This document shows, one piece after another, positions 14,486 to 39,990 of a stretch of DNA of 64,000 nucleotides (position 1 is its first letter; each line of letters opens with the position of its first letter). The position numbers and the translations under genes were made by a program. Origin of the DNA: a virus; the IMG/VR virus record IMGVR_UViG_3300020477_001447, positions 1 through 64,000 of that record. One strand, given 5' to 3'. The notes under the pieces are model-generated. The model was not told where the DNA came from and searched no databases. It was given only the letters and a program-made list of their open reading frames with translations.

Positions 14486-14803
14486 GGGGGTGACAAGGTA
14501 TCGACAGGGTATAATGTACTGGATAGTGCAAGCTGTGAAACTGCTGACTAAATCACAAAAAAACTTAAGTCAGAATTAATACAACTGCCAATAACGCAGA
14601 TTACGATTTAGCCTTAGCTGCTTAATCCTTGGTTGCTCTTCATACCAAGTGTCCAAGAAGAGCCTAACAAAAAAAACGTTTGTTTTTTAGTTTTGTCGGA
14701 TTGAAAAAAACTAAAACAACTGTCACAAATTGTGACTAAGCTTGTGAACGACTTGATAGTGTATATGCTTTGGACGGCGGTTCGATTCCGCCCACCTCCA
14801 CCA
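14486..14803 (+). ncRNA. ssrA: tmRNA; tag (A)ANNADYDLALAA* at 14587-14625
   Basis: 5' GGGGGTGACAAGGTATCGAC, 3' GACGGCGGTTCGATTCCGCCCACCTCCACCA; G3.U wobble; tag ORF ends LAA. Confidence 0.95.
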
Positions 14804-24150: not shown

Positions 24151-24738
24151 ATGAACAAGAATTATAGAAAATTAATATTGAAATACAGGTACCTTATGGA
24201 AGAGGTCCAAGACACTGAAGACCAGATGCAGGATGTACAGACGCTCTTTAATGAAGCAATTGAAGGTGATCTCCGCGCAGATAATTGGAACAAGCATGCT
24301 AAAAAAGAAAACCTTAAAGAAGCTCAAGAAGAGCAGGAGGTTAGCGAAGAAGAGGCCGAGGAAGAATCAATTGATCACCCGCATATTATGAAAGTAATTT
24401 ACAGAAGGTTATCGAGAAAGTGTCATCCCGATGTGGCCCAGTGGCCATCAGAAGCAGCTTTATTTACAGAGTTGGCTGCAGCTTATCGAGAACAAAATTA
24501 TCTTGTAATGCTTATGATTGCAGAAGATCTAGAAGTGAACATTCAGGATCTTAAAAAACAAATTTCAAAAAAGCATTTTAAATATTTTAATAAAACCCTG
24601 AAAGAATTAGAGGGTAAAATATCTAATTATCATGGAAGCTTTGCTTGGATGTGGTACCACGAAGAAGACGAAAAAAGAAAAAAAGCTATCAAAGAACTGT
24701 TTTTACAAACAATCGACAATATGAGAAAAGAGGAGTGA
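24151..24738 (+). CDS. J-domain (DnaJ-like) protein
   Basis: MK.IYRRLSRKCHPD...F.EL..AY. Confidence 0.75.
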   Translation: MNKNYRKLILKYRYLMEEVQDTEDQMQDVQTLFNEAIEGDLRADNWNKHAKKENLKEAQEEQEVSEEEAEEESIDHPHIMKVIYRRLSRKCHPDVAQWPSEAALFTELAAAYREQNYLVMLMIAEDLEVNIQDLKKQISKKHFKYFNKTLKELEGKISNYHGSFAWMWYHEEDEKRKKAIKELFLQTIDNMRKEE

Positions 24739-24742
24739 TAAA

Positions 24743-25198
24743 ATGTCGACAGAAGATAATGAAATAAAGAATTATATTTTAGAACACATGGAATATGTAG
24801 ACGTAACTTTGCGCGTCCGAGCAGATGACGCTAAACTGCTTTGTAGGTCTCGTTTGGCCATGATAGTCAATAACTATGAAAAAGAACACTCGATGTATGC
24901 AGTTAAGATCAATAATCTGCTAACTGAAGGAAAAACAAAACAAATTAAAAAAAACATAGTAGAATATATTGGGTTTATTGATGAGTATCGACAGGCCCTA
25001 GTAGAACTTTCAGAGGCGGTAACACTTTTTGTAGAGAGAGAAGCAGACTCTGTAGCCGCACATTTTCCAATTGGAGAGAAGATCGACATGGAAGATTTTA
25101 ATGCCAAATTAGCTGAAGCCTCAGAAGAACAAGCTGCAGAACTCGCTGAAGAAAATGCAAAAATCAAAAAAGTTAAAAGAAAATCAAAAAAGAAATAA
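24743..25198 (+). CDS. hypothetical protein
   Basis: GAGGAG RBS; 151 aa. Confidence 0.6.
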   Translation: MSTEDNEIKNYILEHMEYVDVTLRVRADDAKLLCRSRLAMIVNNYEKEHSMYAVKINNLLTEGKTKQIKKNIVEYIGFIDEYRQALVELSEAVTLFVEREADSVAAHFPIGEKIDMEDFNAKLAEASEEQAAELAEENAKIKKVKRKSKKK

Positions 25199-25216
25199 AT
25201 AGTATAGGAGTATAGT

Positions 25217-25651
25217 ATGCCAGGAGGAAAATCAAATTCATCACCAGTCGGGACAAGCTTCTTGTCTCATAATGTAGGGTTGTACAATGTTGGATCATAT
25301 CAGGTTAGTAGTGAGCCTTTTTTGACAAGTTCAATAATTGCCCCTGCGAGTTTAGATGTTATATCTGTTGAATTTCCAAAAGTAACAAAGTTTATAGTAA
25401 TTAGAAATTTAAGACCCGGTTCACAAACCTCAGCACCTCTTAGGTTTGGTTTTTCAGAAAATGGTGTCGGTCGGGCCCAATATATTACTCTGTTTAACGA
25501 TGAATCATTTACAGCAGATTATAAAGTAACAAAAATGTTTATTCGGGCAGATATTGCACACGCCGCTACAGGCGCAATATATGCAGGTATGACAGGAATT
25601 CCTGCTTCACAACTTACACACAACTGGACAGGATCCAAGGGTGTTGGATAG
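25217..25651 (+). CDS. putative virion structural protein
   Basis: VGL.NVGSYQVS..PF...FP.VTK.I...N...LR.GFS.NGV beta-rich pattern recalled from large phages. Confidence 0.55.
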   Translation: MPGGKSNSSPVGTSFLSHNVGLYNVGSYQVSSEPFLTSSIIAPASLDVISVEFPKVTKFIVIRNLRPGSQTSAPLRFGFSENGVGRAQYITLFNDESFTADYKVTKMFIRADIAHAATGAIYAGMTGIPASQLTHNWTGSKGVG

Positions 25652-25653
25652 AA

Positions 25654-26817
25654 ATGAGCTTTGGAGCATTCAGATCGAGGCTACCTCGTGATTATTTAGA
25701 TTCTTTAGAAAACACAAAAAAAGAAGCTAAAGAACATGCAGATGCAAAGGTTACAGAAATGTCTGGTGCCTTCATCACAGACATGCGCGCGATTGAATTA
25801 GAAACCCTGGCATTTGCAGAGGCGAAAGTTAATGAATTTTCTGGTGCTTTGGCTACTGAAATTCTTCCAAATCTAGCTGTTTCTGGGGGTATATCCCCTG
25901 CAGAATTTGCTGCCCTTAGTGCATCTTTTAATTATGACATGCGCGCAATCGAAACAGAAACTTTAGCATTTGCAGAAAGCAAAGTTAATGAATTCTCTGG
26001 TGCTCTGGCTACTGAAATTCTACCAAACTTAACCGTTTCCGGTGGCATATCCGCTGCAGAGTTTGCCGCTCTTAGTGCTTCTTTTAACTATGATATGCGA
26101 GCAATCGAAACAGAAACTTTGGCATATGCAGAAGCAAAAGTTAACGAATTCTCTGGGGCCCTTGCTACTGATGTTCTTCCAACCCTAGGTGCTGCCGGCG
26201 GAATATCTGCAGTTGAGTTTGCAGCCCTCAGCGCATCAATTGCTTATGATATGGCTATGATGGAACAAGAAACGTTCGCGTATGCAGATACAGTAGTGCA
26301 GGCAGCAACGGGGTCAATGATTACTTCTGGCGCCGTCGATACAACTAGTTTAAATACATTAAGTGGCTCTATGGCGGCTGCTATGGCCGCGATGGAGATG
26401 CAGCTAGCTACTCAGATTACCAATGTACCAACAGGGGCTTCAACAGCCGAACTGGCCGGTCTAAGTGGCTCTGTGGGGACAGAGATTGATGAGCTTTTTA
26501 TGGCAGTGACCTCATTACAGGATATAGCAGCTAAACTACAATCTCGTGTTTCATATAATGAAGCAATCATCGGCATGCCAGAACATATTGTTCTCAAAAA
26601 TGACATGGGTGCAGAATACTCTCTTCATGTTAATGATGATGGTGACTTGTTGTTTGATGCATACACTCTTACAGGCTCAACATGCGATAGGCAGCTAGTG
26701 TCACTAGAATATTTAACTCTTAAAGCTCCAAACGGACAGCTATACGAACTAAGTGTTATGCCCAATGGTGGATTAACTTTTAACGTAAGTACTCGCCCTA
26801 CTGGTAGCGAGTGTTAG
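25654..26817 (+). CDS. repeat-containing fibre-like protein
   Basis: 3+ tandem 52-aa repeats; C-terminal duplicated L...G..Y.L.V...G.L motif seen in fibres. Confidence 0.6.
   Translation: MSFGAFRSRLPRDYLDSLENTKKEAKEHADAKVTEMSGAFITDMRAIELETLAFAEAKVNEFSGALATEILPNLAVSGGISPAEFAALSASFNYDMRAIETETLAFAESKVNEFSGALATEILPNLTVSGGISAAEFAALSASFNYDMRAIETETLAYAEAKVNEFSGALATDVLPTLGAAGGISAVEFAALSASIAYDMAMMEQETFAYADTVVQAATGSMITSGAVDTTSLNTLSGSMAAAMAAMEMQLATQITNVPTGASTAELAGLSGSVGTEIDELFMAVTSLQDIAAKLQSRVSYNEAIIGMPEHIVLKNDMGAEYSLHVNDDGDLLFDAYTLTGSTCDRQLVSLEYLTLKAPNGQLYELSVMPNGGLTFNVSTRPTGSEC
25780..26290 (+). repeat. tandem 156-bp coding repeats
   Basis: DMRAIExETLAFAExKVNEFSGALAT...GGIS.AEFAALSAS units at 25780, 25936, 26092, partial at 26248. 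Confidence 0.9.
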
Positions 26818-27299
26818 ATTGGTTTTTCAAAGTAGTAAGCACTCCCTGTTGTTAAAAGCTCTGCTTCTCGATGGTCAATAATTAAATTAATATACTTTTC
26901 GCTGTCTCCCTCTGGCCTCCATGCTAAGAGCAGCCTGTACTCGTCGTTATACCAGATCCAATCAAACTCGTTTCCAAGATTAGTTTCTCGCGAGAAAATA
27001 CAATTGTAATGATTATTCGTTAAGCTGGTGACTAAACTGTCATGAAGTTCGTGTCCTGTATTTAATGTTAGGTTTTCTCCACAAAAAGCTAACTCATCTA
27101 CACTTGACAGTTCTAAAAATATATATCCCTTCATTAGCTCTGTATCAACTTCTGCATCACACCACCAGAATGAACTTTCATTATCGTGGGATATCCACGA
27201 ACAGTGCATTGGAAATAGAAGTTCTCCAAATTCATTTTCTTCTTCTATTTGCCCCCCACACCCTAGCATAAACATTAATATAAATAAATACTTGTACAT
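26814..27299 (-). CDS. lipoprotein, hypothetical
   Basis: Lipobox MLGC; 161 aa. Confidence 0.6.
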   Translation of the reverse strand: MYKYLFILMFMLGCGGQIEEENEFGELLFPMHCSWISHDNESSFWWCDAEVDTELMKGYIFLELSSVDELAFCGENLTLNTGHELHDSLVTSLTNNHYNCIFSRETNLGNEFDWIWYNDEYRLLLAWRPEGDSEKYINLIIDHREAELLTTGSAYYFEKPI

Positions 27300-27351
27300 T
27301 GTAACCCTATAGTAACTATGATAGCTGGATATTTTATTTGTTTAAATAACT

Positions 27352-27379
27352 TTGCAATTTTAAAAATATATGTTATTAT
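27352..27379 (+). promoter_or_regulatory. sigma70-like promoter TTGCAA-N16-TATTAT for tRNA cluster
   Basis: -10 ends 18 nt before tRNA-Glu; TG-extended. Confidence 0.5.
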
Positions 27380-27397
27380 GTGTTCAAATGATTCCTT

Positions 27398-27472
27398 GCT
27401 CCCTTAGTTTAATGGTTAGAATTCTGGGTTTTCATCCCGGCGGCAGCGGTTCGACTCCGCTAGGGAGTACCA
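27398..27472 (+). tRNA. tRNA-Glu(TTC)
   Basis: Anticodon arm ctggg-ttTTCat-cccgg; GTTCGACTC; CCA. Confidence 0.9.
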
Positions 27473-27478
27473 AAAAAG

Positions 27479-27554
27479 TGAGGTGTAGTTCAACTGGCAG
27501 AGCGCCAGACTTTGAATCTGGTTGTTGCAGGTTCGAGTCCTGCCACCTCAACCA
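27479..27554 (+). tRNA. tRNA-Gln(TTG)
   Basis: ccaga-ctTTGaa-tctgg; U1-A72; CCA. Confidence 0.93.
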
Positions 27555-27561
27555 TTCATCA

Positions 27562-27637
<76 letters not shown>

Positions 27638-27646
27638 TATAATATT

Positions 27647-27892
27647 ATGAAACCACAAAACGATTTAGATATTTTAGATGAACTAGTAGTAGATACAATT
27701 CTATCAAATGTAAAACATGAGTTTGATGCCATAATTGGACAAATATATTTTCTTTATAGGAAACGAGATAATACATATTTTGTATCGATGGTTGAACCAG
27801 AATATTGGACAAAGTATAATTTTGATCTAATATCCCAGGTTAAATTCACTCATGAACAATCATGGATGAGCGTAGATGGAACGGGGATGTAG
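27647..27892 (+). CDS. hypothetical protein (possibly DUF2452-like) between tRNAs
   Basis: F..IIGQIYFLY...F.SMV.PE.W pattern; stop codon lies inside tRNA-Ala. Confidence 0.6.
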   Translation: MKPQNDLDILDELVVDTILSNVKHEFDAIIGQIYFLYRKRDNTYFVSMVEPEYWTKYNFDLISQVKFTHEQSWMSVDGTGM

Positions 27893-27958
27893 CTCAGTTG
27901 GGAGAGCAGCTGCCTTGCACGCAGCAGGTCGCAGGTTCGACTCCTGTCGTCTCCACCA
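27883..27958 (+). tRNA. tRNA-Ala(TGC)
   Basis: GGGGATG acceptor with G3.U70; gctgc-ctTGCac-gcagc; CCA. Confidence 0.95.
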
Positions 27959-27967
27959 TTGTTTTCC

Positions 27968-27996
27968 TTTAAATAATCATATAAATAGACTATAAT
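27968..27996 (+). promoter_or_regulatory. sigma70-like promoter TTTAAA-N17-TATAAT
   Basis: -10 ends 9 nt before tRNA-Pro. Confidence 0.55.
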
Positions 27997-28005
27997 TATA
28001 TTGGA

Positions 28006-28083
28006 CGGGGTATGGCGCAGTCTGGCTAGCGCACTCGCTTTGGGAGCGAGGGGTCGTAGGTTCGAATCCTACTACCCCGACCA
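28006..28083 (+). tRNA. tRNA-Pro(TGG)
   Basis: ctcgc-ttTGGga-gcgag; CGGGGTA acceptor; CCA. Confidence 0.95.
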
Positions 28084-28104
28084 TTTAATGAGAGACACCA
28101 TTTT

Positions 28105-28193
28105 GGAAGCGTGTCCGAGAGGCCGAAGGAGCACGATTGGAAATCGTGTGTGGTTCATAGCTACCGTAGGTTCGAATCCTACCGCTTCCGCCA
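28105..28193 (+). tRNA. tRNA-Ser(GGA)
   Basis: cacga-ttGGAaa-tcgtg; long variable arm; G73-CCA. Confidence 0.95.
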
Positions 28194-28206
28194 TATATGG
28201 GATTTT

Positions 28207-28464
28207 ATGGAGAATATTGAGTTAGTTATAGCAGCTTGTTCTTTTTTAATGTGCGTCATGATTATGATCGGCACATGGATTCGTTTTACACGTTATCATT
28301 TTACTATAGAAAATCTATGGTCTAGAATAGTTAGACTAGAAATGATTATGTCATATAATAATTTACACCCCCCAGAATGGGACATAGATTATTTAGAAGA
28401 ACAGAGGCAAAGGTATTATCAATCCGACAATGTTGTCTATATAAACTATGATGAAGAACAATAA
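28207..28464 (+). CDS. membrane-anchored hypothetical protein
   Basis: ATG 28207 after tRNA-Ser; N-terminal TM. Confidence 0.55.
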   Translation: MENIELVIAACSFLMCVMIMIGTWIRFTRYHFTIENLWSRIVRLEMIMSYNNLHPPEWDIDYLEEQRQRYYQSDNVVYINYDEEQ

Positions 28465-28539
<75 letters not shown>

Positions 28540-28602
28540 AATTGAGATTAATAAAGAACGCATTGCTCGTCCGGACCTATATAGTAATAAGGAGCCCCTA
28601 CG

Positions 28603-29841
28603 ATGAGCGTCTTTAGAGAACACAAGTCTAACGTAGATAGAAGTGCTACAGATCGAAAACGACATAAAGAAAAAATTGAAAAAGCCATAAAGGAAAGCAT
28701 CAAAGATGTTGTAGCCGAAGAAAGCATTATTGGTCAAAACGGGAAAAAGAAGATAAAAATACCGGTAAAGGGAATAAAAGAGTACCGGTTTGTTTATGGT
28801 AAAAATGATAAAAATAAAACAGTTGGATCCGCTGGTGACATTAATGTAAAAAAGGGGCAAAAGGTTGGTCGCTCTACAGCCAACAGAATTTCAAAAGGAA
28901 ACAAACCATCAGATAAAGCTGGTGAAGAAAAGTACGAAGTAGAAATAAGTCTAGAAGAATTAGCTAGTTATCTGTTCGATAGCCTCCAGTTGCCGGAACT
29001 AGAAAAGAAAAGATTTAAATTTATAAATCAAGAGAAGTTAAGAAGAAAAGGACACAGGCTACAAGGCATAAGGTCCAGACTTTCAAAGAAAGAAACTCTT
29101 AAAAGAAAAATCAAACGAAAAAAGCAGGCAATTGCTGCAGGTACTCACGATCCGGACAGTGGTGAACGTTTTCCATTTCATAAAAATGACTTGAAATATC
29201 ACCACGTTAAGCCTAAAAACAAAGAAAATACAGCGGCTGTTATATTTTTTATAATGGATGTGTCTGGTTCTATGGATCAGGACAAAAAGTTTCTAGCAAG
29301 AAGCTTTTGTTTCCTGTTATATCAGTTTATTAGACATAAGTATGAAAATGTTGAAGTTGTATTTATTGCACACACAACAAAAGCGAAACAAGTAAATGAA
29401 AATGAGTTTTTCACACGGATAACTTCCGGAGGAACAATTATGTCCTCAGCATTAGAGCTAGAAAAGGAACTAATTGAAAAACAATATCATCCAAGTTCTT
29501 GGAATATATACACTTTTTATGCTGGTGATGGTGAAAACTGGCCAAGTGATATTAGAAAATCTACAAATATATTAAATGAAATGAAACAGTTTAATCAACT
29601 AATTGCATACACTGAAATCACACCGTGGGATACCAATGGTTGGCAAGATCCAAACTGGCCAGATTCAATTACAAAAACACCATATCACGCTAGAAGGACA
29701 AATCACAATCCTATGGGTATATCAATGTGGGAAGAGCTAAAGTTAATAGAAGATTCAACGTTGAAACGAGTGAAGATAGTAAACACAGAATCAATCTGGC
29801 CAGCATTTTCTAGATTGTTTGGAGGAAAAACTGATGGATGA
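28603..29841 (+). CDS. yeaH: YeaH/YhbH (DUF444) vWA-domain protein
   Basis: DR.RH...I...I.....EESII, FFIMDVSGSM (MIDAS), FIAHTT.AK, SGGT..SSA, WNIY.F..GDGEN. Confidence 0.92.
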   Translation: MSVFREHKSNVDRSATDRKRHKEKIEKAIKESIKDVVAEESIIGQNGKKKIKIPVKGIKEYRFVYGKNDKNKTVGSAGDINVKKGQKVGRSTANRISKGNKPSDKAGEEKYEVEISLEELASYLFDSLQLPELEKKRFKFINQEKLRRKGHRLQGIRSRLSKKETLKRKIKRKKQAIAAGTHDPDSGERFPFHKNDLKYHHVKPKNKENTAAVIFFIMDVSGSMDQDKKFLARSFCFLLYQFIRHKYENVEVVFIAHTTKAKQVNENEFFTRITSGGTIMSSALELEKELIEKQYHPSSWNIYTFYAGDGENWPSDIRKSTNILNEMKQFNQLIAYTEITPWDTNGWQDPNWPDSITKTPYHARRTNHNPMGISMWEELKLIEDSTLKRVKIVNTESIWPAFSRLFGGKTDG

Positions 29842-31150
29842 GTGGAACATCAAGGATCTAGAAGAGTGGGATAAAAAAATATGTGAATTAGGAGAGTCTT
29901 ATGGGCTGGACTGGTTTGATATTGATTATGAGATAATTGACTATCATGAAATGATTGGCGCTATGTCCTATGTTGGTATGCCAACCCATTATCGCCATTG
30001 GTCTTTTGGAAAATTATTTGAGATAACGCATGCAAAATATACAATGGGGCAAACTGGCCTACCATACGAGATGATTATTAATTCAAATCCAAGCATCGCC
30101 TATCTAATGAAAGAAAACCCAATGAGCACACACTTGTTAACAATGTCTCACTGTGTCGGTCACAGTGATTTCTTTAAAAACAATAGGATGTTCAAGCACA
30201 CTGATCCAGACAATGTAATATCTAAATTTAAATTAGGTTCAAAGAGAATACAACAATATCTTGAAGATCCATCAATAGGCGTCAACAAGGTAGAGAGAAT
30301 AATTGATGCCTGCCATGCGATAAAATACCAGATTCCACGCACACCGGGAATCAAAAGAAGAAGCCAAGAGGAACTTAAGGGCATCTATGTGCAAAAAATG
30401 TTAGATTCTACGGATGGTATCTTTGATGATATAGATTTAGATAAGTTTCCCTTAGAAAGAGATTATAATTTATTAGCCTTCATTCGCGAAAACTCTAGAA
30501 ATCTTAAAGATTGGGAGCGCGACGTTATTTCTATTGTTGAAGAAAATTCTAAATATTTCTTACCACAAGCGTATACTAAGATAATGAATGAGGGTTGGGC
30601 AGTCATGATGCATGAAAAGATTATGAAAGATTTGAATTTGCCCCATGCCTACCATTTGGCTTTTATAAAATTACATAATCAAGTTGTCAGGCCACACCTT
30701 GGTGGTGTTAACCCATATCACTTAGGATATACAATCTTTAAGAAGATCGAAGAAGAAAAAGGATTTGATGAATGCTTAATGGTGCGCGAGGTTCATAATG
30801 ACGTAACATTTTTAAGAAAATATTTAGATGAGCAATTGGCTAGAGACTTGAATTTATTTGCCTTTTCTTACAAAAAGAAGCAAAATGTACACACTATAGA
30901 TGATGTTTCTAACGAAGATGGGTGGGAGAACGTCCGCGATGCTCTAATTAGTACAGTAGGGTTAAACTCAGTACCGGTTGTGTATGTGGAGGAACTAATG
31001 AAAGATAACAGCTTGCACATCGTTCATGACCACGATGGTAGAGATTTAAATTTACAACATGGCCATAAAGTTTATGATCACATAAAAGAGTTATGGGGCG
31101 ACAACGTGATATTTACAACAATAATTGAAGAGGAACTGTGGGAATTCTAA
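29834..31150 (+). CDS. spoVR: SpoVR/YcgB family protein
   Basis: GMP.HY.HWSFGK, YEMIINSNP, HCVGHSDFFKNN, TKIMNEGWA, NPYHLG; GGAGG RBS before ATG 29834. Confidence 0.93.
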   Translation: MDEWNIKDLEEWDKKICELGESYGLDWFDIDYEIIDYHEMIGAMSYVGMPTHYRHWSFGKLFEITHAKYTMGQTGLPYEMIINSNPSIAYLMKENPMSTHLLTMSHCVGHSDFFKNNRMFKHTDPDNVISKFKLGSKRIQQYLEDPSIGVNKVERIIDACHAIKYQIPRTPGIKRRSQEELKGIYVQKMLDSTDGIFDDIDLDKFPLERDYNLLAFIRENSRNLKDWERDVISIVEENSKYFLPQAYTKIMNEGWAVMMHEKIMKDLNLPHAYHLAFIKLHNQVVRPHLGGVNPYHLGYTIFKKIEEEKGFDECLMVREVHNDVTFLRKYLDEQLARDLNLFAFSYKKKQNVHTIDDVSNEDGWENVRDALISTVGLNSVPVVYVEELMKDNSLHIVHDHDGRDLNLQHGHKVYDHIKELWGDNVIFTTIIEEELWEF

Positions 31151-31151
31151 A

Positions 31152-33086
31152 ATGAAAAAAACAACAAAATTTCTTAAAGAAATAGATAAACATAAGAGTC
31201 TCAAAAAGGCTGATAAATTTCAAGGTACTTTAGAAGATTATATTAACCTTTTGGAAGAAGATTCCTCTATTTGCAATTTAGCACATAAGAGGTTGTACGA
31301 TGCGCTGTCCAGCTATGGTATTACAGCGATGAAAGAGTCTGACTCTAGATGCAATAAGCTTTTCGGAGGCGAACAGCTAAAAACATACGATTATTTTCAA
31401 GATAAGTTTTTTGGAATGGAACGATCTTTAGCAAAAATCATGCGGTTTTTGAGATCAGCATCGCTCAAAGGCGAAGAGAGTCGACAAGTTTTACTTCTTT
31501 TAGGCCCCGTTGGAGCCGGCAAGTCAGCACTAGTTGAGCATATTAAGCGCGCCTTAGAAGCCTCCGCGCCAATTTATCATATTGAAGGTTGTCCTATACA
31601 GGAGGAGCCTCTTCACTTGGTACCAAGAAGTTTAAGGGAAAAATTTCAAGAAATTTACGGCATAAAAATAGAGGGTGATCTGTGTCCGGTTTGCCGACAC
31701 AATCTCTTAAATGAATATGGTGGCGATTATATGAAAGTACCTGTTGTACAAACAACCTTCTCTATTAGAGGCCGTCGAGGCGTTGGTGTTGTTCCACCAA
31801 TGGATGCTAACACACAAGACACTTCCATACTTATTGGTACAGAAGACATATCTAAACTGGATCTATATCCAGAGGATGATCCTCGCGTATTAAGTCTTAA
31901 TGGTGCTTTTAACGTTGGCAACCGCGGTATTGTAGAGTTTGTTGAGGTCTTCAAAAACGAAATTGAATTCTTACATACAATGATTACAGCAACACAGGAA
32001 AAAGCAATTCCATCTCCAGGCAAGCAAGCCATGATTTATTTTGATGGCGTGATTCTTTCACACTGCAATGAGGCTGAGTGGAATAAGTTTAAATCTGAAC
32101 ACACTAATGAAGCTATTTTAGATAGAATTGTACGAGTTAACGTACCGTATTGTTTAGAATATTCAGAAGAACAGAAAATCTATAAAAAACTTCTAGATGA
32201 GTCTGATTTTGAGTGCCACTTTGCCCCTCACACTTTAGAGTTTGCCTCTATGTTCGCGGTATTATCTCGCCTTAAGCCAACAAATAAGATCGATCTTCTT
32301 ACAAAGATGAAGATGTATAATGGTGAAGAGATAATTGAAAAAGGTTCCGTTCGTAAAATTGATATCGAAGACCTCCGTGAAGAGGTGATAGACGAAGGTA
32401 TGACAGGGATTTCCACTCGGTTTATTATGAAAGCAATCGACAACGCTCTTTCCGATTCAGAAAGGAACATGATTACTCCTATTTCCATTCGAGATTCTTT
32501 AGTTAAGCAAGTTAAAGAACAGATTGTAGATCAGGAAGCCAGAGAAAACTATTTGATTTTCTTACAGAAAGTTCTACACGAGGAATACTTAAGAATTCTA
32601 GAAAGAGAAATTACAAAAGCTTTTGTTTCTGCATATGATGAACAGGCAGAGTCTTTATTTAATAATTACTTAGATCATGCCGAGGCTTATGTGAATGCAA
32701 CAAAGGTCAAGGATCGGGTTACAAAAGAAGAGATTAATCCGGATGAAAACTTCATGGTGTCAATTGAACAACAGATTGGCATCCAGGGTAGTGCTAAGGA
32801 TAACTTTAGAAGTGATATCACAGCATATATGTTTGCAATGTTACGCCGCGGCGAAACTATTGACTGGAGGAGTTATGGCCCGCTTAGAGAGGCAATCGAA
32901 AACAAGCTAGTTGCTTCAGTCAAAGATATATCCCGCATTATTACAAAGAGTAAAAGCAGAGATAATAAGCAAAAAGGCAAATACAATGATATGGTTAGAA
33001 CACTAATAGATGACTACGGCTATAGTGAGGATTCAGCCGCAGAAATTATTAAGTTTGCCGCTAACAATCTCTGGAGAGATTCATAA
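31152..33086 (+). CDS. prkA: PrkA/YeaG AAA+ ATPase / serine kinase
   Basis: Walker A GPVGAGKS, CPIQEEPL, NRGIVEFVEVFK, NEAILDR, GISTRF. Confidence 0.94.
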   Translation: MKKTTKFLKEIDKHKSLKKADKFQGTLEDYINLLEEDSSICNLAHKRLYDALSSYGITAMKESDSRCNKLFGGEQLKTYDYFQDKFFGMERSLAKIMRFLRSASLKGEESRQVLLLLGPVGAGKSALVEHIKRALEASAPIYHIEGCPIQEEPLHLVPRSLREKFQEIYGIKIEGDLCPVCRHNLLNEYGGDYMKVPVVQTTFSIRGRRGVGVVPPMDANTQDTSILIGTEDISKLDLYPEDDPRVLSLNGAFNVGNRGIVEFVEVFKNEIEFLHTMITATQEKAIPSPGKQAMIYFDGVILSHCNEAEWNKFKSEHTNEAILDRIVRVNVPYCLEYSEEQKIYKKLLDESDFECHFAPHTLEFASMFAVLSRLKPTNKIDLLTKMKMYNGEEIIEKGSVRKIDIEDLREEVIDEGMTGISTRFIMKAIDNALSDSERNMITPISIRDSLVKQVKEQIVDQEARENYLIFLQKVLHEEYLRILEREITKAFVSAYDEQAESLFNNYLDHAEAYVNATKVKDRVTKEEINPDENFMVSIEQQIGIQGSAKDNFRSDITAYMFAMLRRGETIDWRSYGPLREAIENKLVASVKDISRIITKSKSRDNKQKGKYNDMVRTLIDDYGYSEDSAAEIIKFAANNLWRDS

Positions 33087-33099
33087 ATATAAGTGATAT

Positions 33100-34437
33100 A
33101 TGACAAAAAAGATATATGTGTTAGATACTAGTGTCTATTTAACAAATGCTGAGTCGATTTTTTCTTTTGATGACAATGATATAATCATTCCTTTAAAAGT
33201 CTTAGAAGAAGTAGACAAGCACAAAAAGCGCCAAGATGGTGCTGGGTTAAATGCTAGAACTATAATTAGAATTTTAGATATTCTTAGAGAAAGTGGAAGC
33301 CTTTATGAAGGCGTGTCTCTCGGTAGAGAATATGGTACTGTCCGTGCTCGTGGGATAGAAACACTACACACAGAGGAATTCCCAGTAGATCTAAATTTAC
33401 AAATTCCAGATCATATGATTATTGCAACGGCTTTGTCGGAAAAAATTGATAATCCCGAAAAGCAGGTAATCATGGTTACTAGGGATATCAACATGAGGGT
33501 TATATGCGACTCTTTGGGCCTATTGTGTGAAGATTTTGTTGATAACAAGATTGTTAAAAGTGGCGACAGTATTTTTACTGGTCACTTAACACACACGATT
33601 GCAGATTGTGAAATAGAAGCATTATATGCAAATGATGATATATATTTGGATCCCTCCGAAATTGACTTGCAACCAAATCAATTTGTAATGTTGACATCAG
33701 ATTTAAATCCGAAGAAAACTGTTTTGACAAGATTTTCTAACTATGTTACCCCACTAAAGAGAGTTGTGGCGTTTAAGAATGGTGTGTGGGGAGTCCGAGC
33801 TAGAAATAAAGAGCAAGCATATGCATTAGATCTGCTAATGAATCCAGATATATCATTAGTGACTTTGATAGGTAAAGCCGGCTCCGGTAAAACTCTTTGT
33901 GCTATAGCTGCCGGCATTCAGCAGATATTAGATATTCCATCCGATGGGAAAGAACCAAGGTATACCAGAATGATAGTCTCAAGACCAGTTCAACCGCTGG
34001 GGAAGGATATTGGCTTTTTACCTGGCACTATGGAAGAAAAGATGCATCCGTGGCTGATGCCAATTCAAGATAATTTACAATTCTTAATGGGTAATGATAA
34101 AGCTACGTTAGAAATGTACATGGAAAACGGTACAATAGAGATAGAGGCTTTGACATATATTCGTGGACGCTCCATCGCGAACGCTTTTATTATAATTGAT
34201 GAAGCTCAAAACTTAACAACTCACGAATTAAAGACTATCATTACAAGAGTTGGTGAAGGAACTAAGATTGTGTTGACGGGAGATGTTGAGCAGATTGACA
34301 ATACTTATATTGATGCCACAACTAACGGGCTAACACACGCTGTTGAAAAATTCAAAGAAACTGACCTAGCTGGTCACATTACTTTGTCCAAGGGCGAAAG
34401 ATCAAAAGTTGCGACACTAGCAGCAAAAATTTTATAG
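33100..34437 (+). CDS. phoH: PIN-PhoH fusion (PhoH2/YlaK-like)
   Basis: YVLDTSV PIN motif; GKAGSGKT, GFLPG, YIRGRS, DEAQN, GDVEQID. Confidence 0.92.
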   Translation: MTKKIYVLDTSVYLTNAESIFSFDDNDIIIPLKVLEEVDKHKKRQDGAGLNARTIIRILDILRESGSLYEGVSLGREYGTVRARGIETLHTEEFPVDLNLQIPDHMIIATALSEKIDNPEKQVIMVTRDINMRVICDSLGLLCEDFVDNKIVKSGDSIFTGHLTHTIADCEIEALYANDDIYLDPSEIDLQPNQFVMLTSDLNPKKTVLTRFSNYVTPLKRVVAFKNGVWGVRARNKEQAYALDLLMNPDISLVTLIGKAGSGKTLCAIAAGIQQILDIPSDGKEPRYTRMIVSRPVQPLGKDIGFLPGTMEEKMHPWLMPIQDNLQFLMGNDKATLEMYMENGTIEIEALTYIRGRSIANAFIIIDEAQNLTTHELKTIITRVGEGTKIVLTGDVEQIDNTYIDATTNGLTHAVEKFKETDLAGHITLSKGERSKVATLAAKIL

Positions 34438-34445
34438 GGGAAAAA

Positions 34446-34787
34446 ATGAGTTTAGGCGAAAATCCAACCTTAAATGAGGTTGTAGAAAAAAATACCCAAC
34501 TTAAAGAGTTGGTAGTCAATTATGTTGGCAATGCGCATAATCCAGAAAGTGGTGAAGTTACAGTCGAGATGATTGTTGAAACAATGGCAAAAGAATTCCC
34601 AGAGTTTTTAATGGTTATTGCAGAGGAAAATTGGATTAGAGGATATCATCAGGCTTTAAATGATGTTGAGCATGGTGAAAAATTAGCAAAAGAAGGCCAA
34701 ACTACTGCTACTGAACAGGGATCGGCCCACGCGCAACTTTCTGCCTTGGCAGAAAATAAGCAGAGTTCAACAACGGCAACAGAATAA
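34446..34787 (+). CDS. hypothetical protein
   Basis: 113 aa; EFPEFL..IAEENWIRGY.QAL.D. Confidence 0.65.
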   Translation: MSLGENPTLNEVVEKNTQLKELVVNYVGNAHNPESGEVTVEMIVETMAKEFPEFLMVIAEENWIRGYHQALNDVEHGEKLAKEGQTTATEQGSAHAQLSALAENKQSSTTATE

Positions 34788-35452
34788 TGAGAGATTTCGT
34801 CAAAGAGTCAGCTACAAAACAGCGGCGGGAATATCACTTGTATGATGATATTACCATGCTAGTGAAAGATTTTCCAGACTCTGACGAAATTGACTTATTA
34901 TCCTTTATATCAGAAGTTGAATCAGTAATACCTCGTCATTATTTTAATAATATTGATGTCGTCTATATTGGAGATTTTGATGATTTAAGCGGGCGTAATG
35001 CTGCTTATTTAGATGGTGCAATATACATGACTAATTCTGAGCCAACTATTTTTGATATGCTGGAAAATATTGTTCACGAAGTTGCGCACTCTCTAGAGGC
35101 ACCCTACAGTGACGTTATTTATGCTGATGGTAAAATTGCAAATGAATTTTTAGGTAAACGTAGAAGACTGCAGTCAATATTAGAGCAAGAGGGATATGAT
35201 ATCCCAGCCAGTTACTATGAGAATGTTGAGTATGATGAATCTTTTGATCATTTTTTAATGGATACGGTTGGATACCCTCTTTTAACTTCCTTAACGATGG
35301 GCCTGTTTATAAATCCATATGCAGCTACATCACTGAGAGAGTATTTTGCTTCTGGGTTTGAAAGCTTTTATCTTTTAGAATCGGACGATGTTAAGAAAAT
35401 AAGTCCTCAGCTTTCTCTTAAAATCAACTATTTACATAAATTGGGAGAGTAA
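34787..35452 (+). CDS. putative zinc metallopeptidase (HExxH)
   Basis: VHEVAHSLE ... YAATS.REYFA.GFE. Confidence 0.6.
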   Translation: MRDFVKESATKQRREYHLYDDITMLVKDFPDSDEIDLLSFISEVESVIPRHYFNNIDVVYIGDFDDLSGRNAAYLDGAIYMTNSEPTIFDMLENIVHEVAHSLEAPYSDVIYADGKIANEFLGKRRRLQSILEQEGYDIPASYYENVEYDESFDHFLMDTVGYPLLTSLTMGLFINPYAATSLREYFASGFESFYLLESDDVKKISPQLSLKINYLHKLGE

Positions 35453-35453
35453 A

Positions 35454-35852
35454 ATGTTAAAATTTTTTAGTGAATTAAAGAAAGAACTGTCTTTAGACGA
35501 TACAACAAATTTATTAACCGCAACGGTTAAGGTACCTAAAAAGACAAGAAGGAACTCTTTGATCCACGTTAAAGAAAAAACAGTTAGGACTTGGGTTGAA
35601 GGTTCTGGCTACAATATTGTAAATGTTGTTAAACACAATCATATCGATAATAGCCAGGATGTATCAGATAATACTTGGGTTTTTGAGGTCGAAAAATTAA
35701 TTGAAGCTACAACGGAACAAACAAAAAATAAAAAAGTAGTTGACAATTCTGAATCGGAGGATATAATAGAGAGTAAGCCGGTTCAACGACAGAAAAAAAC
35801 TCGCACCACGAGAAAGACAAAATCGAATACGAGCCGCAGAAATGAGGATTAG
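35454..35852 (+). CDS. hypothetical protein
   Basis: 132 aa, basic tail. Confidence 0.55.
   Translation: MLKFFSELKKELSLDDTTNLLTATVKVPKKTRRNSLIHVKEKTVRTWVEGSGYNIVNVVKHNHIDNSQDVSDNTWVFEVEKLIEATTEQTKNKKVVDNSESEDIIESKPVQRQKKTRTTRKTKSNTSRRNED
35740..35767 (+). promoter_or_regulatory. consensus sigma70 promoter TTGACA-N16-TATAAT inside a CDS
   Basis: Perfect hexamers with A-tract upstream; ~85 nt before the nuclease/glycan gene run. Confidence 0.7.
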
Positions 35853-36628
35853 TGTCTGCAAGAGCGCATATATCTTTTAGTGAGCTAAAGGATTGGAAAT
35901 TTTGTCCGTTTTATCATAACCTAGTTTGGGTACAAAAACTAAAATCATTTGAGGGTAATGAATATACTGCCTTTGGTACTGCTATTCATGATACTTGTGA
36001 AAAGAAACTACTAGGGGAAACCTTTGACGAAGGAAAGCATTTTCTAGCTTCCTTCAAGAAAGGTCTTAATGTATTAGAAGAGAAATCTATAGATTTAGAC
36101 ATGTCTCTTGTAGAAAAGATGATAGGTCAAGGTGTAAGTCTTCTTCCAGATATTGCACCGGCAGTTGATGAGTATTTCAAAGAATACGAGGTGGTTTCCA
36201 CAGAAGAACAACTTTATGAGCCCATCGAAGGCGTTGAAGATCTCCGATTTAAGGGATTCATCGATGCGACAATCAAAACACCAGATGGAAAATATCATAT
36301 TATTGATTGGAAAACTTGCTCTTGGGGTTGGGATGCCCGCCGCCGCCAGGATCCGATGGTCACATACCAGTTGACTTTGTATAAGAAATACTTTTGCGCA
36401 AAGCACAATATCGATCCTAAAAATGTAGAGACTTATTTTGCTTTACTTAAGCGTACAGCTAAGAATGATAAGGTTGAAATTTTCCGTGTGACTAGTGGTG
36501 CAAGAAAAACTGAAAATGCCTTTAAACTTTTGATGAAGGCTGTTTATAATATAAAAAATAAGAAGACGATCAAAAATCGTCTGTCTTGCACAAAATGCAC
36601 GTTTAGGAAAACTGAACACTGCCCTTAA
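35852..36628 (+). CDS. PD-(D/E)XK Cas4/RecB-like nuclease
   Basis: S.S....W..CP, FGTAIH, GFID, IIDWKT, QL.LY, C..C....CP. Confidence 0.88.
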   Translation: MSARAHISFSELKDWKFCPFYHNLVWVQKLKSFEGNEYTAFGTAIHDTCEKKLLGETFDEGKHFLASFKKGLNVLEEKSIDLDMSLVEKMIGQGVSLLPDIAPAVDEYFKEYEVVSTEEQLYEPIEGVEDLRFKGFIDATIKTPDGKYHIIDWKTCSWGWDARRRQDPMVTYQLTLYKKYFCAKHNIDPKNVETYFALLKRTAKNDKVEIFRVTSGARKTENAFKLLMKAVYNIKNKKTIKNRLSCTKCTFRKTEHCP

Positions 36629-36636
36629 GGAACAGT

Positions 36637-37908
36637 ATGGACAAAAAAATTAAGATTTTTACTTTGAGCGATCACCCTTTATCTCCATCGGGTGTCGGTA
36701 CTCAGACTCGATATATGATCGAGGAAATGCTTAAAACTGGTAAATATCAGTTTGTAAGTTTTGGTGGAGCAATCAAACATCACGATTATAGACCTACGAG
36801 GACTGAAGAGTTTGGCGATGATTGGATTATATATCCAGTTGATGGTTATGGAGATCAAGATTCTATTAGATCGGTAATCTGGACAGAGAAGCCAGACGTT
36901 TTATGGTTTATGACAGACCCTAGGTTTTGGGGCTGGCTTTGGCAGATTGAAAATGAGATTAGAGCAAACGTGCCGATGGTCTATTACCACGTTTGGGATA
37001 ATAGGCCCTATCCTAATTTTAATAAAAGTTTCTACGACTCTAATGACAACATAGCGTGCATATCAAAGCTTACATATGAGGTTGTGCAAAATGTTTCACC
37101 GGATGTAGAATCGTCATACTTACCACACACTGTGAACACCGAAATCTTTAAAAAGCTCGATCCGGAGGTCATTGAACAATTCAGAGAAACTAGTATACCA
37201 CTTGAATACGAGCCAAACCGGGACAGAGTTTTGTTTTTTTGGAACAATCGAAATGCTAGAAGGAAACAGTCTGGCACTGTAGTCTGGTGGTTTAAAGAAT
37301 TTCTAGACATTGTTGGTCACAATAATGCTGCGCTTATAATGCACACAGAAACTGACGATGTACATGGTCAAGACTTGGAAGCTATTTCCCGCGAGCTTGG
37401 GTTAAACAATGGTCAGTTGGTTTTCTCCAGACAAAAGGTGCCAGCAGAAAACTTAGCCTTGGCTTACAACATGTGTGATTGTACTATTAATATTGCCGAT
37501 GCGGAAGGTTTTGGTTTAGCGACTTTAGAGTCTTTAGCCTGCGAAGTGCCAATTATTGTGACAATGACTGGTGGCCTACAGGAGCAAGTTACTGACGGAG
37601 AGAACTGGTTTGGTTTTGGTCTTGAGCCTGCAGCAAAAGCTATAATTGGCTCCCAGGAGGTGCCATACATCTATGAAGATCGTGTATCAAAAGAGGACTT
37701 TTTAGATGCAATGGTTAAGTTTTATAATATGACTAAAGAAGAAAGAGCGAAAATGGGTGCTGCTGGTAGAAATCACGTACTAACAAATTATTCTTTTGAA
37801 AAATATAGAACCAATTGGGACAACCTTTTTACCAAAGTGCATGAGGAATGTGGCTCCTGGGCTACGCGAAAGAATTACCAGTCTTGGGAGATGAAGGAAA
37901 TAAAATGA
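36637..37908 (+). CDS. glycosyltransferase family 4 (GT-B)
   Basis: SGVG.Q, RNARRKQ, AEGFGLATLESLAC. Confidence 0.88.
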   Translation: MDKKIKIFTLSDHPLSPSGVGTQTRYMIEEMLKTGKYQFVSFGGAIKHHDYRPTRTEEFGDDWIIYPVDGYGDQDSIRSVIWTEKPDVLWFMTDPRFWGWLWQIENEIRANVPMVYYHVWDNRPYPNFNKSFYDSNDNIACISKLTYEVVQNVSPDVESSYLPHTVNTEIFKKLDPEVIEQFRETSIPLEYEPNRDRVLFFWNNRNARRKQSGTVVWWFKEFLDIVGHNNAALIMHTETDDVHGQDLEAISRELGLNNGQLVFSRQKVPAENLALAYNMCDCTINIADAEGFGLATLESLACEVPIIVTMTGGLQEQVTDGENWFGFGLEPAAKAIIGSQEVPYIYEDRVSKEDFLDAMVKFYNMTKEERAKMGAAGRNHVLTNYSFEKYRTNWDNLFTKVHEECGSWATRKNYQSWEMKEIK

Positions 37909-39989
37909 GAAAAAAGATATTAGTTAAAGGCCCAGCCTTATCTCGTTCTGGGTATGGAGAGCAAACACGGTTTGCACTACGCTCCCTTCGCAGTCAAGAA
38001 GAAAAATATGATATTTATCTACAAAATATTCCGTGGGGTCAAACTGGGTGGATTTTTGATGATAACGAAGAGCGCACTTGGATTGATGCTTGTTTGGCTA
38101 AAAGTGTAGAATATGTTGCAGCAGGCGGCAAGTTCGACATGTCATTACAGGTTACAATACCAAATGAGTGGGAAAAATTAGCACCAGTGAACATAGGATA
38201 TACTGCCGGGATAGAAACAAATCAAATTTCACCAGCATGGATTGAAAAGACTGAAGTAGTTGATAAGATCATAACAATTTCAGAACACTCTAAGGATGGA
38301 TTCCTAAACACAGTATATGATGTACAAAATAAAGAAACTGGCCAAGTAGTAAAGGGTTACAGGTGTGAAACACCAGTAGAGGTGGTACACTATCCAGTAC
38401 GAAACGTTAAGCCGGCGAAACTAGATCTAGAACTAGAAAATGATTTTAACTTTTTAGTTTTAGCTCAGTGGGGTGTTAGAAAAAACCTAGAAAATACAAT
38501 ACGTTGGTTTGTTGAAGAGTTTATTGATAGAGATGTTGGCTTGGTTATTAAGACTAATGCCGCAAATGACTCTATTATGGACAGAGACCACTGCGAAAAA
38601 AGATTACAAGAGCTTTTGAGTGAGTATGAAAATAGGCAGTGCAAGGTTTATATGATCCACGGCACAATGAAAGAAGATGAGCTGGCTGGTCTTTACAATC
38701 ATCCTAAAATAAAAGCACTAATATCACTGACGCACGGTGAAGGCTACGGCTTGCCAATTTTTGAAGCCGCGTATTATGGTCTTCCAGTTATAACCGCTGG
38801 TTGGTCCGGACACGTTGATTTCTTATCAGCTCCGGTTAAAGAGAAGAACAAAAAAGTTAAAGTTAAGCCACTTTATGCAAAGGTAGACTTTGATGTAAAA
38901 CGTATTCAAAAAGAAGCTCGCTGGGAAGGTGTTATTGAGAAAAGGTCTGAATGGTGTTACCCGCGAGAAGGCAGCGCAAAGATGCGCATGCGCGAGGTTT
39001 ATAAAAGTCATGGAAGATTTAAGAGCAATGCACGAAAACTACAATCGTGGATCTTAGAAAATTTCACAGAAGAACAGAAGTATGAGCAATTTGCTAATGC
39101 TGTTTGTGACGAGAAGATTGATTTAGACTGTGATTATGTTTTTGTTAGTGACAGATTTGCTGATCAGGCCCCTGGCGGCGCAGAGTTAAGTTTTCAGGCT
39201 GTTATAGATACAGCCCCCGGAAAACATCTAAAACTAAACGCCTCAGATGTTAGTGAAAGCTTAATAGATACATTAAAAGATAAAACTTGGATTTTCTCTA
39301 ATTTTACAGCGATGGATAAATCCCTCGTTCCAAAGATCGCAGAAAACCTGAAGTATTACTTTATAGAATCAGATTATAAATACTGTGAACATAGATTACC
39401 ACAGCTGTGTCAGATCTTCAATGGTGGAGAGGACTGCGTTTGTGTCGAAAAGGACTCAGGTCAGTTGATTAAATTGTTCTGTGATAACGCACAGTTGTTG
39501 TTTTTCCGTTCCGAGAACCAACGCGCACATCACTTAAGTGCTCTGGATCTAAAAAAGAAGGACACTAGGATCATGTCTGCGGTCTTTACGGACGATGTAT
39601 TAAATTATATTCAAGCATTGCGCAAGGAATTTCTTAATAAGAAAGTAGATGTGTGGGTTGTCAGTTCTTCGCCTTCGTGGGTTAAGGGACATCAGGCTTC
39701 GAAGAAGTGGTGTGAAGAAAACAACAAACAAGTATTTGAGCTACATGGTAAGTCTTATAAGGAATCCCTTGCTTGTTTAGCACAGGCCCGCGGCCTCTGC
39801 GCACTCCCGCCAGGGTATGATACTTGTCCACGAATGGTTATTGAAGCGAAGTTGTTGGGTTGTGAACTGCAGTTAAACGAGAACGTTTTGCATGCTGATG
39901 AAAAGTGGTTCGCTACAGATGACATTGAAGCAATAGAAGCACACTTAAGATCAGTGGTGCCAACATTCTGGAAGGAAGTTTCAGTTTAA
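37905..39989 (+). CDS. two-domain glycosyltransferase (GT4 plus second GT-B-like domain)
   Basis: SRSGYG, RKN, HGEGYGLPIFEAA; second domain GGAE...DTCPRMVIEAKLLGC. Confidence 0.85.
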   Translation: MRKKILVKGPALSRSGYGEQTRFALRSLRSQEEKYDIYLQNIPWGQTGWIFDDNEERTWIDACLAKSVEYVAAGGKFDMSLQVTIPNEWEKLAPVNIGYTAGIETNQISPAWIEKTEVVDKIITISEHSKDGFLNTVYDVQNKETGQVVKGYRCETPVEVVHYPVRNVKPAKLDLELENDFNFLVLAQWGVRKNLENTIRWFVEEFIDRDVGLVIKTNAANDSIMDRDHCEKRLQELLSEYENRQCKVYMIHGTMKEDELAGLYNHPKIKALISLTHGEGYGLPIFEAAYYGLPVITAGWSGHVDFLSAPVKEKNKKVKVKPLYAKVDFDVKRIQKEARWEGVIEKRSEWCYPREGSAKMRMREVYKSHGRFKSNARKLQSWILENFTEEQKYEQFANAVCDEKIDLDCDYVFVSDRFADQAPGGAELSFQAVIDTAPGKHLKLNASDVSESLIDTLKDKTWIFSNFTAMDKSLVPKIAENLKYYFIESDYKYCEHRLPQLCQIFNGGEDCVCVEKDSGQLIKLFCDNAQLLFFRSENQRAHHLSALDLKKKDTRIMSAVFTDDVLNYIQALRKEFLNKKVDVWVVSSSPSWVKGHQASKKWCEENNKQVFELHGKSYKESLACLAQARGLCALPPGYDTCPRMVIEAKLLGCELQLNENVLHADEKWFATDDIEAIEAHLRSVVPTFWKEVSV

Positions 39990-39990
39990 T

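Follow-up and report, generated by a model that had tools for sequence, protein, structure and literature searches.

Introduction

The genes for PrkA (YeaG), YeaH (YhbH) and SpoVR (YcgB) are among the most widespread bacterial gene sets with a poorly understood mechanism, and they have been tied to ATP-dependent and starvation-induced bulk proteolysis only in the years 2022 to 2026. Bacillus subtilis PrkA degrades casein in a reaction that depends on ATP and on an intact Walker A motif, and kinase activity was not shown for the protein (PMC9512850). In Escherichia coli, YeaG (renamed SpdA) is required for a starvation-induced, largely non-specific degradation of cytoplasmic proteins that fuels new protein synthesis (PMC13684143). 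Here we analyze a copy of this gene trio carried by an uncultured phage. It lies in a 64,000-nucleotide (nt) stretch of DNA, hereafter the window, which forms the first 64 kb of the 100,743-bp IMG/VR virus record IMGVR_UViG_3300020477_001447 (CheckV completeness 56%). The three genes are intact and stand in the order yeaH-spoVR-prkA, which is a cyclic rotation of the order usual in cells. We are close to certain that this operon is the permuted, vertically inherited descendant of a prkA-yhbH-spoVR set of the Bacillota/Desulfobacterota type. The use that the phage makes of it is a more tentative matter, and is weighed below against other readings.

The operon and its three proteins

Four intact and tightly coupled open reading frames (ORFs) occupy positions 28603-34437 on the + strand, namely yeaH, spoVR, prkA and a PIN-PhoH gene. 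The three that concern us first are the following.

28603-29841, + strand: yeaH/yhbH (DUF444), Pfam PF04285
29834-31150, + strand: spoVR/ycgB, Pfam PF04293 (ORF open from TTG 29819)
31152-33086, + strand: prkA/yeaG (spdA) type AAA+ ATPase with PrkA C-terminal domain, Pfam PF08298 and PF06798 (ORF open from TTG 31125)

The likely start of spoVR is ATG 29834, which is placed behind a GGAGG and overlaps the yeaH stop (ATGGATGA), and prkA likely starts at ATG 31152, 1 nt past the spoVR stop. The trio is thus co-directional and contiguous, with an 8-nt overlap between yeaH and spoVR and a 1-nt gap between spoVR and prkA.

PrkA matches both of its Pfam families over practically their full length: PF08298 at E 4e-142 (473.9 bits, cut-off 25, profile positions 2-357 of 358) and the C-terminal domain PF06798 at E 4.5e-81 (272.7 bits, cut-off 25, positions 1-255 of 255). 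The Walker A motif (G127-P-V-G-A-G-K133-S134) and the acidic Walker B region (E271/E274) are invariant, and all 76 columns conserved at 95% or more in 167 sequences are retained. The score of 405.6 bits against the enterobacterial YeaG equivalog NF011999 falls below its cut-off of 576, and our trees place the protein with the Bacillota type; it is best regarded as a member of the family and not as an E. coli-type equivalog. A homologue of known structure is available in the Protein Data Bank (PDB) as 9xip (also 9xiq and 9xir), a 692-residue 'serine protein kinase' found at E 4e-103, and no publication on these entries was found in the literature.

YeaH (PF04285, E 6e-104, 348.8 bits) consists of a long N-terminal region followed by a C-terminal vWA domain. 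The metal ion-dependent adhesion site (MIDAS) of this domain is complete and invariant (D219-x-S221-G-S223, T278 and D309), and none of the 31 columns conserved at 95% or more is altered. The best NCBIfam match is TIGR02877, sporulation protein YhbH, at 367 bits, which is below the equivalog cut-off of 467.95. An AlphaFold2 model was confident over residues 145-340, where it adopts a vWA fold; when compared with the PDB it matched 151 vWA/MIDAS chains at E<=1e-3, including the Rea1 MIDAS domain and NorD of the NorQD system. Both the Rea1 MIDAS domain and NorD are adaptors of AAA+ remodelling motors.

SpoVR matches PF04293 at E 6e-115 (384.7 bits, profile positions 1-404 of 407), while the SpoVR_C domain scores 25.7 bits, just below its cut-off of 27.6. 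All 38 conserved columns are present, among them H60, E84, H111, H115, E159, E258, H265 and H286, and the four residues H111, H115, E84 and E258 are kept in 139 of 139 sequences. As for YeaH, no relative of solved structure turned up when the PDB was searched by sequence, and a Foldseek comparison of the AlphaFold2 model (predicted local distance difference test score 88.7) with the PDB returned nothing at E<=1e-3. In an exhaustive VIA search of 48,161 chains, nearly all of the top 50 matches were zincins, with Z scores of 6.4-11.7 over 110-198 aligned residues, values that lie below the safe level for mostly helical folds. These zincin-type matches cover SpoVR residues 4-347 and include M1 aminopeptidases, LTA4 hydrolase, M32 carboxypeptidases, thermolysin and DUF885. 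Throughout the family H111-x3-H115 is invariant and helical, and a later helix (254-271) bears N-E258-G-W-A, also invariant; we take these two motifs to resemble the zinc-ligand motifs of M1 peptidases.

Gene order, distribution and descent

A scan of IMG/VR with peptides of the window PrkA found at least 158 stretches encoding relatives, and 80 of these loci were fetched. Their PrkA proteins are 63-88% identical to that of the window. Three of the 80 loci are cut off upstream and were left out of the order count; in the other 77, which have enough upstream flank, the order is yeaH>spoVR>prkA on one strand in every case. Within 8 kb on either side, the trio is the only block common to all loci of the clade, and the neighbouring genes differ from one part of the clade to another.

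In cells the arrangement is different. When prokaryotes were scanned in parallel, each species being represented by a single genome, 80 loci were obtained, 61 of them with prkA>yeaH>spoVR, seven with prkA>yeaH and ten with prkA alone in the fetched flank. The permuted order yeaH>spoVR>prkA appeared in two loci, a contig of the metagenome-assembled genome (MAG) TMED69 and a Sulfobacillus contig. As prkA comes first in 68 of the 70 informative genome loci, and the window and all 77 clade loci depart from this, the phage order is a permutation that became fixed after one old capture. It is a cyclic rotation of the cellular order, and may have come about through a tandem duplication in which the outer genes were later lost.

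The two exceptions differ in kind. The contig from 'Methylococcaceae bacterium TMED69' (NHDW01000006.1, 305,838 bp) carries the trio, a PIN-PhoH gene and a portal gene; the portal protein is 50% identical to that of the window's record and is encoded 82 kb from the trio, and the trio genes nest within the phage clade. The contig is therefore best seen as a piece of jumbo-phage DNA that was wrongly binned into a bacterial MAG. The title of this MAG is also the basis for calling the clade marine. In Sulfobacillus benefaciens AMDSBA1 (PXYT01000011.1), by contrast, the permuted trio has ordinary cellular flanks (sugar transferases and a chromate transporter), so that the order is rare in cells yet not unique to phages, and the idea of a phage-specific order was rejected on this ground. 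The Sulfobacillus PrkA clusters with those of the Thermus phages, a hint that this locus was a source of the trio of those phages, or a sink for it.

Trees were built with FastTree for PrkA (107 rows), YeaH (95 rows) and SpoVR (82 rows). In all three, the IMG/VR clade and the TMED69 contig form one group with support of 99-100, and this phage clade adjoins a Bacillota clade and a clade of Desulfobacterota, Binatia and Udaeobacter. An IQ-TREE analysis of 43 PrkA rows, rooted on distant YeaG types, recovered the phage clade with an SH-like approximate likelihood ratio test value of 100 and placed it as sister to Bacillota with a support of 92, which is not decisive. Among clade members the synonymous distance dS is saturated and the non-synonymous distance dN is 0.05-0.23; where dS can be measured, their ratio omega is about 0.03. 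The window proteins keep every column conserved at 95% or more in 139-167 phage and cellular sequences, with no sign of decay. This pattern reflects strong purifying selection on the trio, and the topology of the trees shows that in the lineage of the window it was captured once, as a unit and long ago.

The source record is a real phage. TerL (the large terminase subunit), a portal protein and a baseplate wedge protein are encoded on the same 100.7-kb record as the trio, and nearly all of its genes lie on one strand. The nearest TerL proteins from cultured phages are 42-44% identical (Flavobacterium 'immuto' phages and Microcystis phage Mel-JY01), and those of T4-like cyanophages about 34%; the source phage is accordingly an uncultured, distant relative of the T4-like phages. 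A megablast search with the 5.8-kb region against 50,697 phage records gave no match, and tblastn against the phage records found distant homologues only, at about 32% identity. Among the records searched, the clade thus has no cultured representative.

Passenger DNA, that is, cellular genes on a chimeric or mis-binned contig, might be suspected from the slightly lower GC content of the module (0.365, against 0.39 for the window) and from the relative in a MAG labelled Methylococcaceae. On the whole, though, these GC values are even. The hallmark genes on the same record speak against it, as does the fact that the MAG contig itself bears a portal gene akin to the window's. Moreover, four IMG/VR contigs from other samples (L005, L006, L007 and L048, which represent one genotype) show the same collinear arrangement as the window between ORF 24151 and ORF 40718 (24151-41338), spanning both flanks of the module, so that identical junctions were assembled in four other metagenomes. 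Together with the monophyly of the clade for three genes, these observations refute a chimera or passenger DNA, and we consider the chance of an artefact to be negligible.

These results bear on most of a preliminary description of the window, which was made from its sequence alone. That description named the genes and reported them as intact, tightly coupled, arranged as yeaH-spoVR-prkA and then PIN-PhoH behind a transfer RNA (tRNA) cluster, and non-canonical relative to a usual bacterial order of prkA-yeaH-(spoVR). The ORFs, profile matches, junctions and cellular loci agree with it on each of these points, and on the phage context. The survey of viral databases that it proposed bore out the order in every informative locus; neither the assembly break nor the nesting among decayed cellular genes that it had named as grounds for doubt was found. 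Its view that it is unusual for a phage to carry a whole module did not survive the survey, given the many IMG/VR contigs with close relatives and several cultured or published phage carriers.

Proposed function and its alternatives

To account for the retention of the trio, we propose that PrkA, YeaH and SpoVR would form an ATP-driven machine for protein remodelling and degradation. PrkA would be the AAA+ motor, and YeaH its MIDAS/vWA adaptor for the docking of partners or substrates, in the way that NorD serves NorQ and the Rea1 MIDAS domain serves Rea1. SpoVR would act as a zincin-like metal-binding subunit, possibly supplying or controlling peptidase activity. During infection the machine would turn over cytoplasmic proteins, mainly those of the host, and the freed amino acids and energy would feed virion synthesis in nutrient-poor cells, much as starved E. 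coli degrades its proteins in bulk by means of YeaG (SpdA). The long joint retention of the three genes, their omega of about 0.03 and their fixed order argue that the proteins work as one unit, which pays off in lytic infection outside any sporulation or RpoS context. A protein-turnover machine used by the phage is a reading to which we give slightly less than an even chance; the statement as a whole, comprising identity, evolution and mechanism, we regard as evenly balanced.

Several points weigh against this mechanism. Proteolysis by PrkA in vitro is very slow, and the work on starvation proteolysis in E. coli covered yeaG only, without yeaH or ycgB. In Thermus phage Lalka8 the trio is located between the head genes and TerL, a position that suits a role in assembly equally well. 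SpoVR also lacks the HExxH signature of zincin peptidases: the corresponding segment reads H111-[C/V/A]-x-G-H115, with C, V or A at position 112 in place of the catalytic Glu in 139 of 139 sequences, and as this replacement is family-wide we have not filed SpoVR as a zincin peptidase. Its status as a peptidase is doubtful, and it is perhaps none at all, because even the highest fold Z score of 11.7 is below the safe level for helical folds. Based on the model, SpoVR may be a non-canonical zincin peptidase or a metal-binding protein without enzymatic activity.

A bolder form of the turnover mechanism can be put forward, although we think it rather unlikely to hold in full. In this 'proteome liquidation' machine of the phage, SpoVR (H-x3-H...NEGWA) would be the peptidase or the gate of PrkA/YeaG and YeaH the MIDAS adaptor that feeds it, and a clade of large, probably ocean phages would depend on the trio in starved cells. 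If true, host protein would be converted into amino acids and ATP, a protein-level counterpart of the recycling of host DNA by phages, and the abundant 'sporulation' spoVR signal in marine viromes would be explained.

That signal has so far been read in another way. In viromes of oxygen-minimum zones, spoVR is reported to be the most abundant 'sporulation' auxiliary gene and was interpreted as such (PMC8940887), and the preliminary description likewise saw in the module a machine for dormancy or starvation control with which the phage overrides or imposes host quiescence. On this explanation PrkA, as a Ser/Thr kinase or regulator, would push the host into a dormant, stationary-phase or sporulation-like state or keep it out of one, letting infection proceed or persist. 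The kinase and sporulation annotations of the family agree with it, and YeaG is reported to be linked to adaptation to nitrogen starvation (PMC4664914). However, kinase activity of B. subtilis PrkA could not be demonstrated and its C-terminal P-loop is degenerate (PMC9512850), and the trio is widespread in bacteria that do not sporulate. The locus holds no signalling gene, be it for a sigma factor, an anti-sigma factor or a second-messenger enzyme, and one would scarcely expect a regulator to require three large proteins, each held at such a low omega. The dormancy claim rests on old sporulation and kinase labels. Current evidence on the cellular system favors ATP-dependent protein turnover (PMC9512850, PMC13684143), none of the present results argues for a control of quiescence, and we consider a switch of host physiology improbable. 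For virus ecology it follows that counts of spoVR and prkA in marine viromes should not be taken as counts of sporulation genes.

A second function raised in the preliminary description, that of an assembly chaperone, is still a live rival. Here the AAA+/MIDAS pair would remodel structural complexes of the phage instead of host proteins, for example by removing scaffold or assembly factors in a Rea1- or MoxR-like manner during virion assembly or maturation. The resemblance of YeaH to MIDAS adaptors of remodelling machines fits this role, and the phage of the window has very large structural genes. Synteny points both ways: the Lalka8 trio lies between the portal/minor-head genes and TerL, and that of phage phiYS40 adjoins TerL, but the window trio is surrounded by tRNA, PhoH, nuclease and sugar genes, with TerL and portal about 60 kb away, and its neighbours vary across the clade. 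Cellular homologues, furthermore, have no such assembly client. We give assembly a low probability.

Finally, the machine that we favor for bulk turnover could instead be selective, a takeover or counter-defence protease for the destruction of individual host proteins, with defence effectors, transcription factors and ribosome hibernation factors as conceivable targets. Takeover commonly targets Lon-like regulated proteolysis, the strongly constrained module belongs to the core of the whole clade, and the neighbouring PIN-PhoH protein and Cas4-like PD-(D/E)XK nuclease act on nucleic acids. In a PADLOC search, however, YeaH, SpoVR and PrkA matched none of the defence families at E<=1e-3, which also led us to reject a reading of the trio as a defence system; no known anti-defence family was matched, and degradation by the E. 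coli system has been described as mostly lacking specificity (PMC13684143). A selective protease is in our judgment a distinctly unlikely alternative to bulk turnover by the trio.

Neighbouring genes

The following features flank the trio.

27398-28539, + strand: cluster of seven tRNAs (Glu, Gln, Thr, Ala, Pro, Ser, Asn), found with ARAGORN and Rfam RF00005
28577-28586, + strand: candidate promoter-like motif CTATATAGTA, 17 nt before the yeaH start codon
33100-34437, + strand: PIN-PhoH (PhoH2-like) RNA helicase/RNase gene, Pfam PF13638 and PF02562

The PIN-PhoH gene begins 13 nt after the prkA stop and was counted into the module in the preliminary description. Its product has a PIN_4 domain at residues 6-146 (E 3e-24) and a PhoH domain at residues 232-432 (E 2e-52), and matches the NCBIfam model NF053827, 'RNA 5'-3' helicase PhoH2', at 273.9 bits (E 2.5e-81). 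Adjacency to prkA is confined to two genotypes, the window and that of L005, L006, L007 and L048; in other relatives the gene lies 3-8 kb downstream (34 loci) or outside the fetched flank (42 loci). For this reason we treat it as a syntenic neighbour and rejected it as a fixed fourth member: of the 'module plus PIN-PhoH', the trio stands and the addition does not. It is a separate RNA helicase/RNase gene of a kind commonly borne by phages, and happens to border the operon in this genotype. As in PhoH2 and phage phoH genes, a PIN_4 domain is fused to a PhoH ATPase; in distinction to PhoH2, the score is far under the equivalog cut-off of 680, and linkage to the trio is not conserved. In 29 clade loci the place directly after prkA is taken by a fast-evolving gene of about 440 codons without a Pfam match (e.g., L024:9962-11287). 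No copy of this gene occurs in the window's 100.7-kb record, where PIN-PhoH stands next to prkA instead.

On the other side, tRNA-Asn is the last tRNA of the cluster and ends 63 nt 5' of yeaH; the cluster is context and lies outside the module. The motif in the intervening spacer belongs to the pattern CTATA[AT]AnTA, which has five + strand matches in the 100.7-kb record. Four of the five start 23-38 nt upstream of a start codon (positions 679, 4728, 24113 and 28577, the last being that of yeaH), against about 6% expected by position, in a test that was post hoc and made on a small sample. The copy before yeaH is retained in L005, the nearest relative, within a spacer that has otherwise diverged. 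We regard CTATA[AT]AnTA, which differs from the T4 late motif TATAAATA, as a candidate class of phage promoters, and as a lead more than a finding. The T4-type motif itself was absent upstream of yeaH in all 69 distinct clade loci and occurs in the window at chance level, and scans for sigma-70 promoters and terminators were uninformative.

Other genes of the record deserve mention. A one-piece transfer-messenger RNA (tmRNA) is encoded at 14486-14803 (+) of the window (Rfam RF00023, 126.9 bits), with the tag peptide ANNADYDLALAA; a tmRNA, nine tRNAs and a putative protein-turnover trio would together amount to a heavy phage investment in translation rescue and proteolysis tagging. Some 4 kb upstream of the trio, a small gene at 24151-24738 (+) gives a weak match to the J-domain of DnaJ (25.9 bits, cut-off 27.8). 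The nearest relatives conserve this gene, and it may provide a co-chaperone link to proteostasis. Positions 22039-24033 (+) encode a 664-residue protein rich in Ala, Glu, Asp and Arg, with degenerate 'SLxTRLgaEEaaRaaa'-like repeats and a GC content of 0.51 as against 0.39 in the window. No match to it was found in Pfam, PHROG or NCBIfam, and it may be a fibrous coiled-coil protein. The PD-(D/E)XK nuclease mentioned above lies at 35852-36628 (+), three small genes after PIN-PhoH; its matches to Cas4-like PADLOC families are weak, and it is conserved together with PIN-PhoH in the nearest relatives. Downstream of the baseplate genes, a single ORF of 3316 codons occupies record positions 65151-75101 (L170:1151-11101) and is followed by ORFs of 1055 and 1356 codons without PHROG matches. 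All three probably encode giant fibre or tail proteins.

Comparison with known systems

The closest relatives of the operon are the cellular prkA-yhbH(yeaH)-spoVR(ycgB) sets of the Bacillota and Desulfobacterota/Binatia subtype. These comprise the same three full-length families with the same conserved residues, and are likewise co-directional and tightly linked, at identities of 55-63% for PrkA, 38-47% for YeaH and 37-45% for SpoVR. The phage version differs from them in its permuted order, in being phage-encoded and in forming its own clade in three trees. YeaG (SpdA), YeaH and YcgB of E. coli and PrkA of B. subtilis belong to the same families and supply the sole functional data. Relative to the enterobacterial type, the phage proteins are only 31-35% identical and score below the NCBIfam equivalog cut-offs, and the control by RpoS, NtrC or sporulation to which the cellular genes are subject is lacking for the phage copy. 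Being compact, diverse and free of host regulation, phage trios are good material for co-folding, reconstitution and complementation.

Mechanistically, the pairing of an AAA+ ATPase with a full-MIDAS vWA protein, as in PrkA and YeaH, recalls the NorQ-NorD, Rea1/Mdn1 MIDAS and MoxR-type systems; NorD and the Rea1 MIDAS domain are both among the structural matches of the YeaH model. In distinction to these systems, the AAA+ domain of PrkA makes up a Pfam family of its own and is extended by a C-terminal domain, and SpoVR has no counterpart there.

Trios in phages have been recorded before, and no published study of one was found in the literature. The cultured Thermus phages phiYS40, TMA, Lalka8, Lalka27 and MN1 possess the complete trio, permuted as in the window; the annotations read 'conserved bacterial protein / vWA', 'SpoVR' and 'serine kinase / AAA ATPase'. 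The phiYS40 record (GenBank DQ997624) lists 'conserved bacterial protein', 'SpoVR' and 'serine kinase', with an extra gene of 1.85 kb separating spoVR from prkA, and in Lalka8 the three are given as vWA, hypothetical and AAA ATPase. Their PrkA proteins are only about 32% identical to that of the window and sit with Sulfobacillus on a separate deep branch, as an independent lineage.

PrkA, YeaH and SpoVR are also carried by the Ralstonia jumbo phage RsoM2USA, whose published annotation table lists PrkA and SpoVR (PMC8504454), and by the huge phages LR745206, LR756502, LR756504 and LR756511. These five have the canonical, prkA-first order, unlike the window, and in LR756502 spoVR lies about 245 kb from prkA. 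The PrkA proteins of RsoM2USA, LR745206, LR756502 and LR756504 branch with a YeaG-type clade of Pseudomonadota, and that of LR756511 falls in another clade, with rows from Chloroflexota and Planctomycetota; these trios are separate and apparently more recent captures. The record of Enterobacter phage LAU1 (MN688132.1, 1-3308) opens with an enterobacterial-type yeaG-yeaH pair beside tail-fibre genes, which is most likely a host flank in a prophage-derived record and not a phage module. As the jumbo/huge-phage and Thermus-phage lineages branch apart from the window clade, the trio must have entered phages several times. The window trio is a solid further example of phage cargo already recorded, and not a new kind of system.

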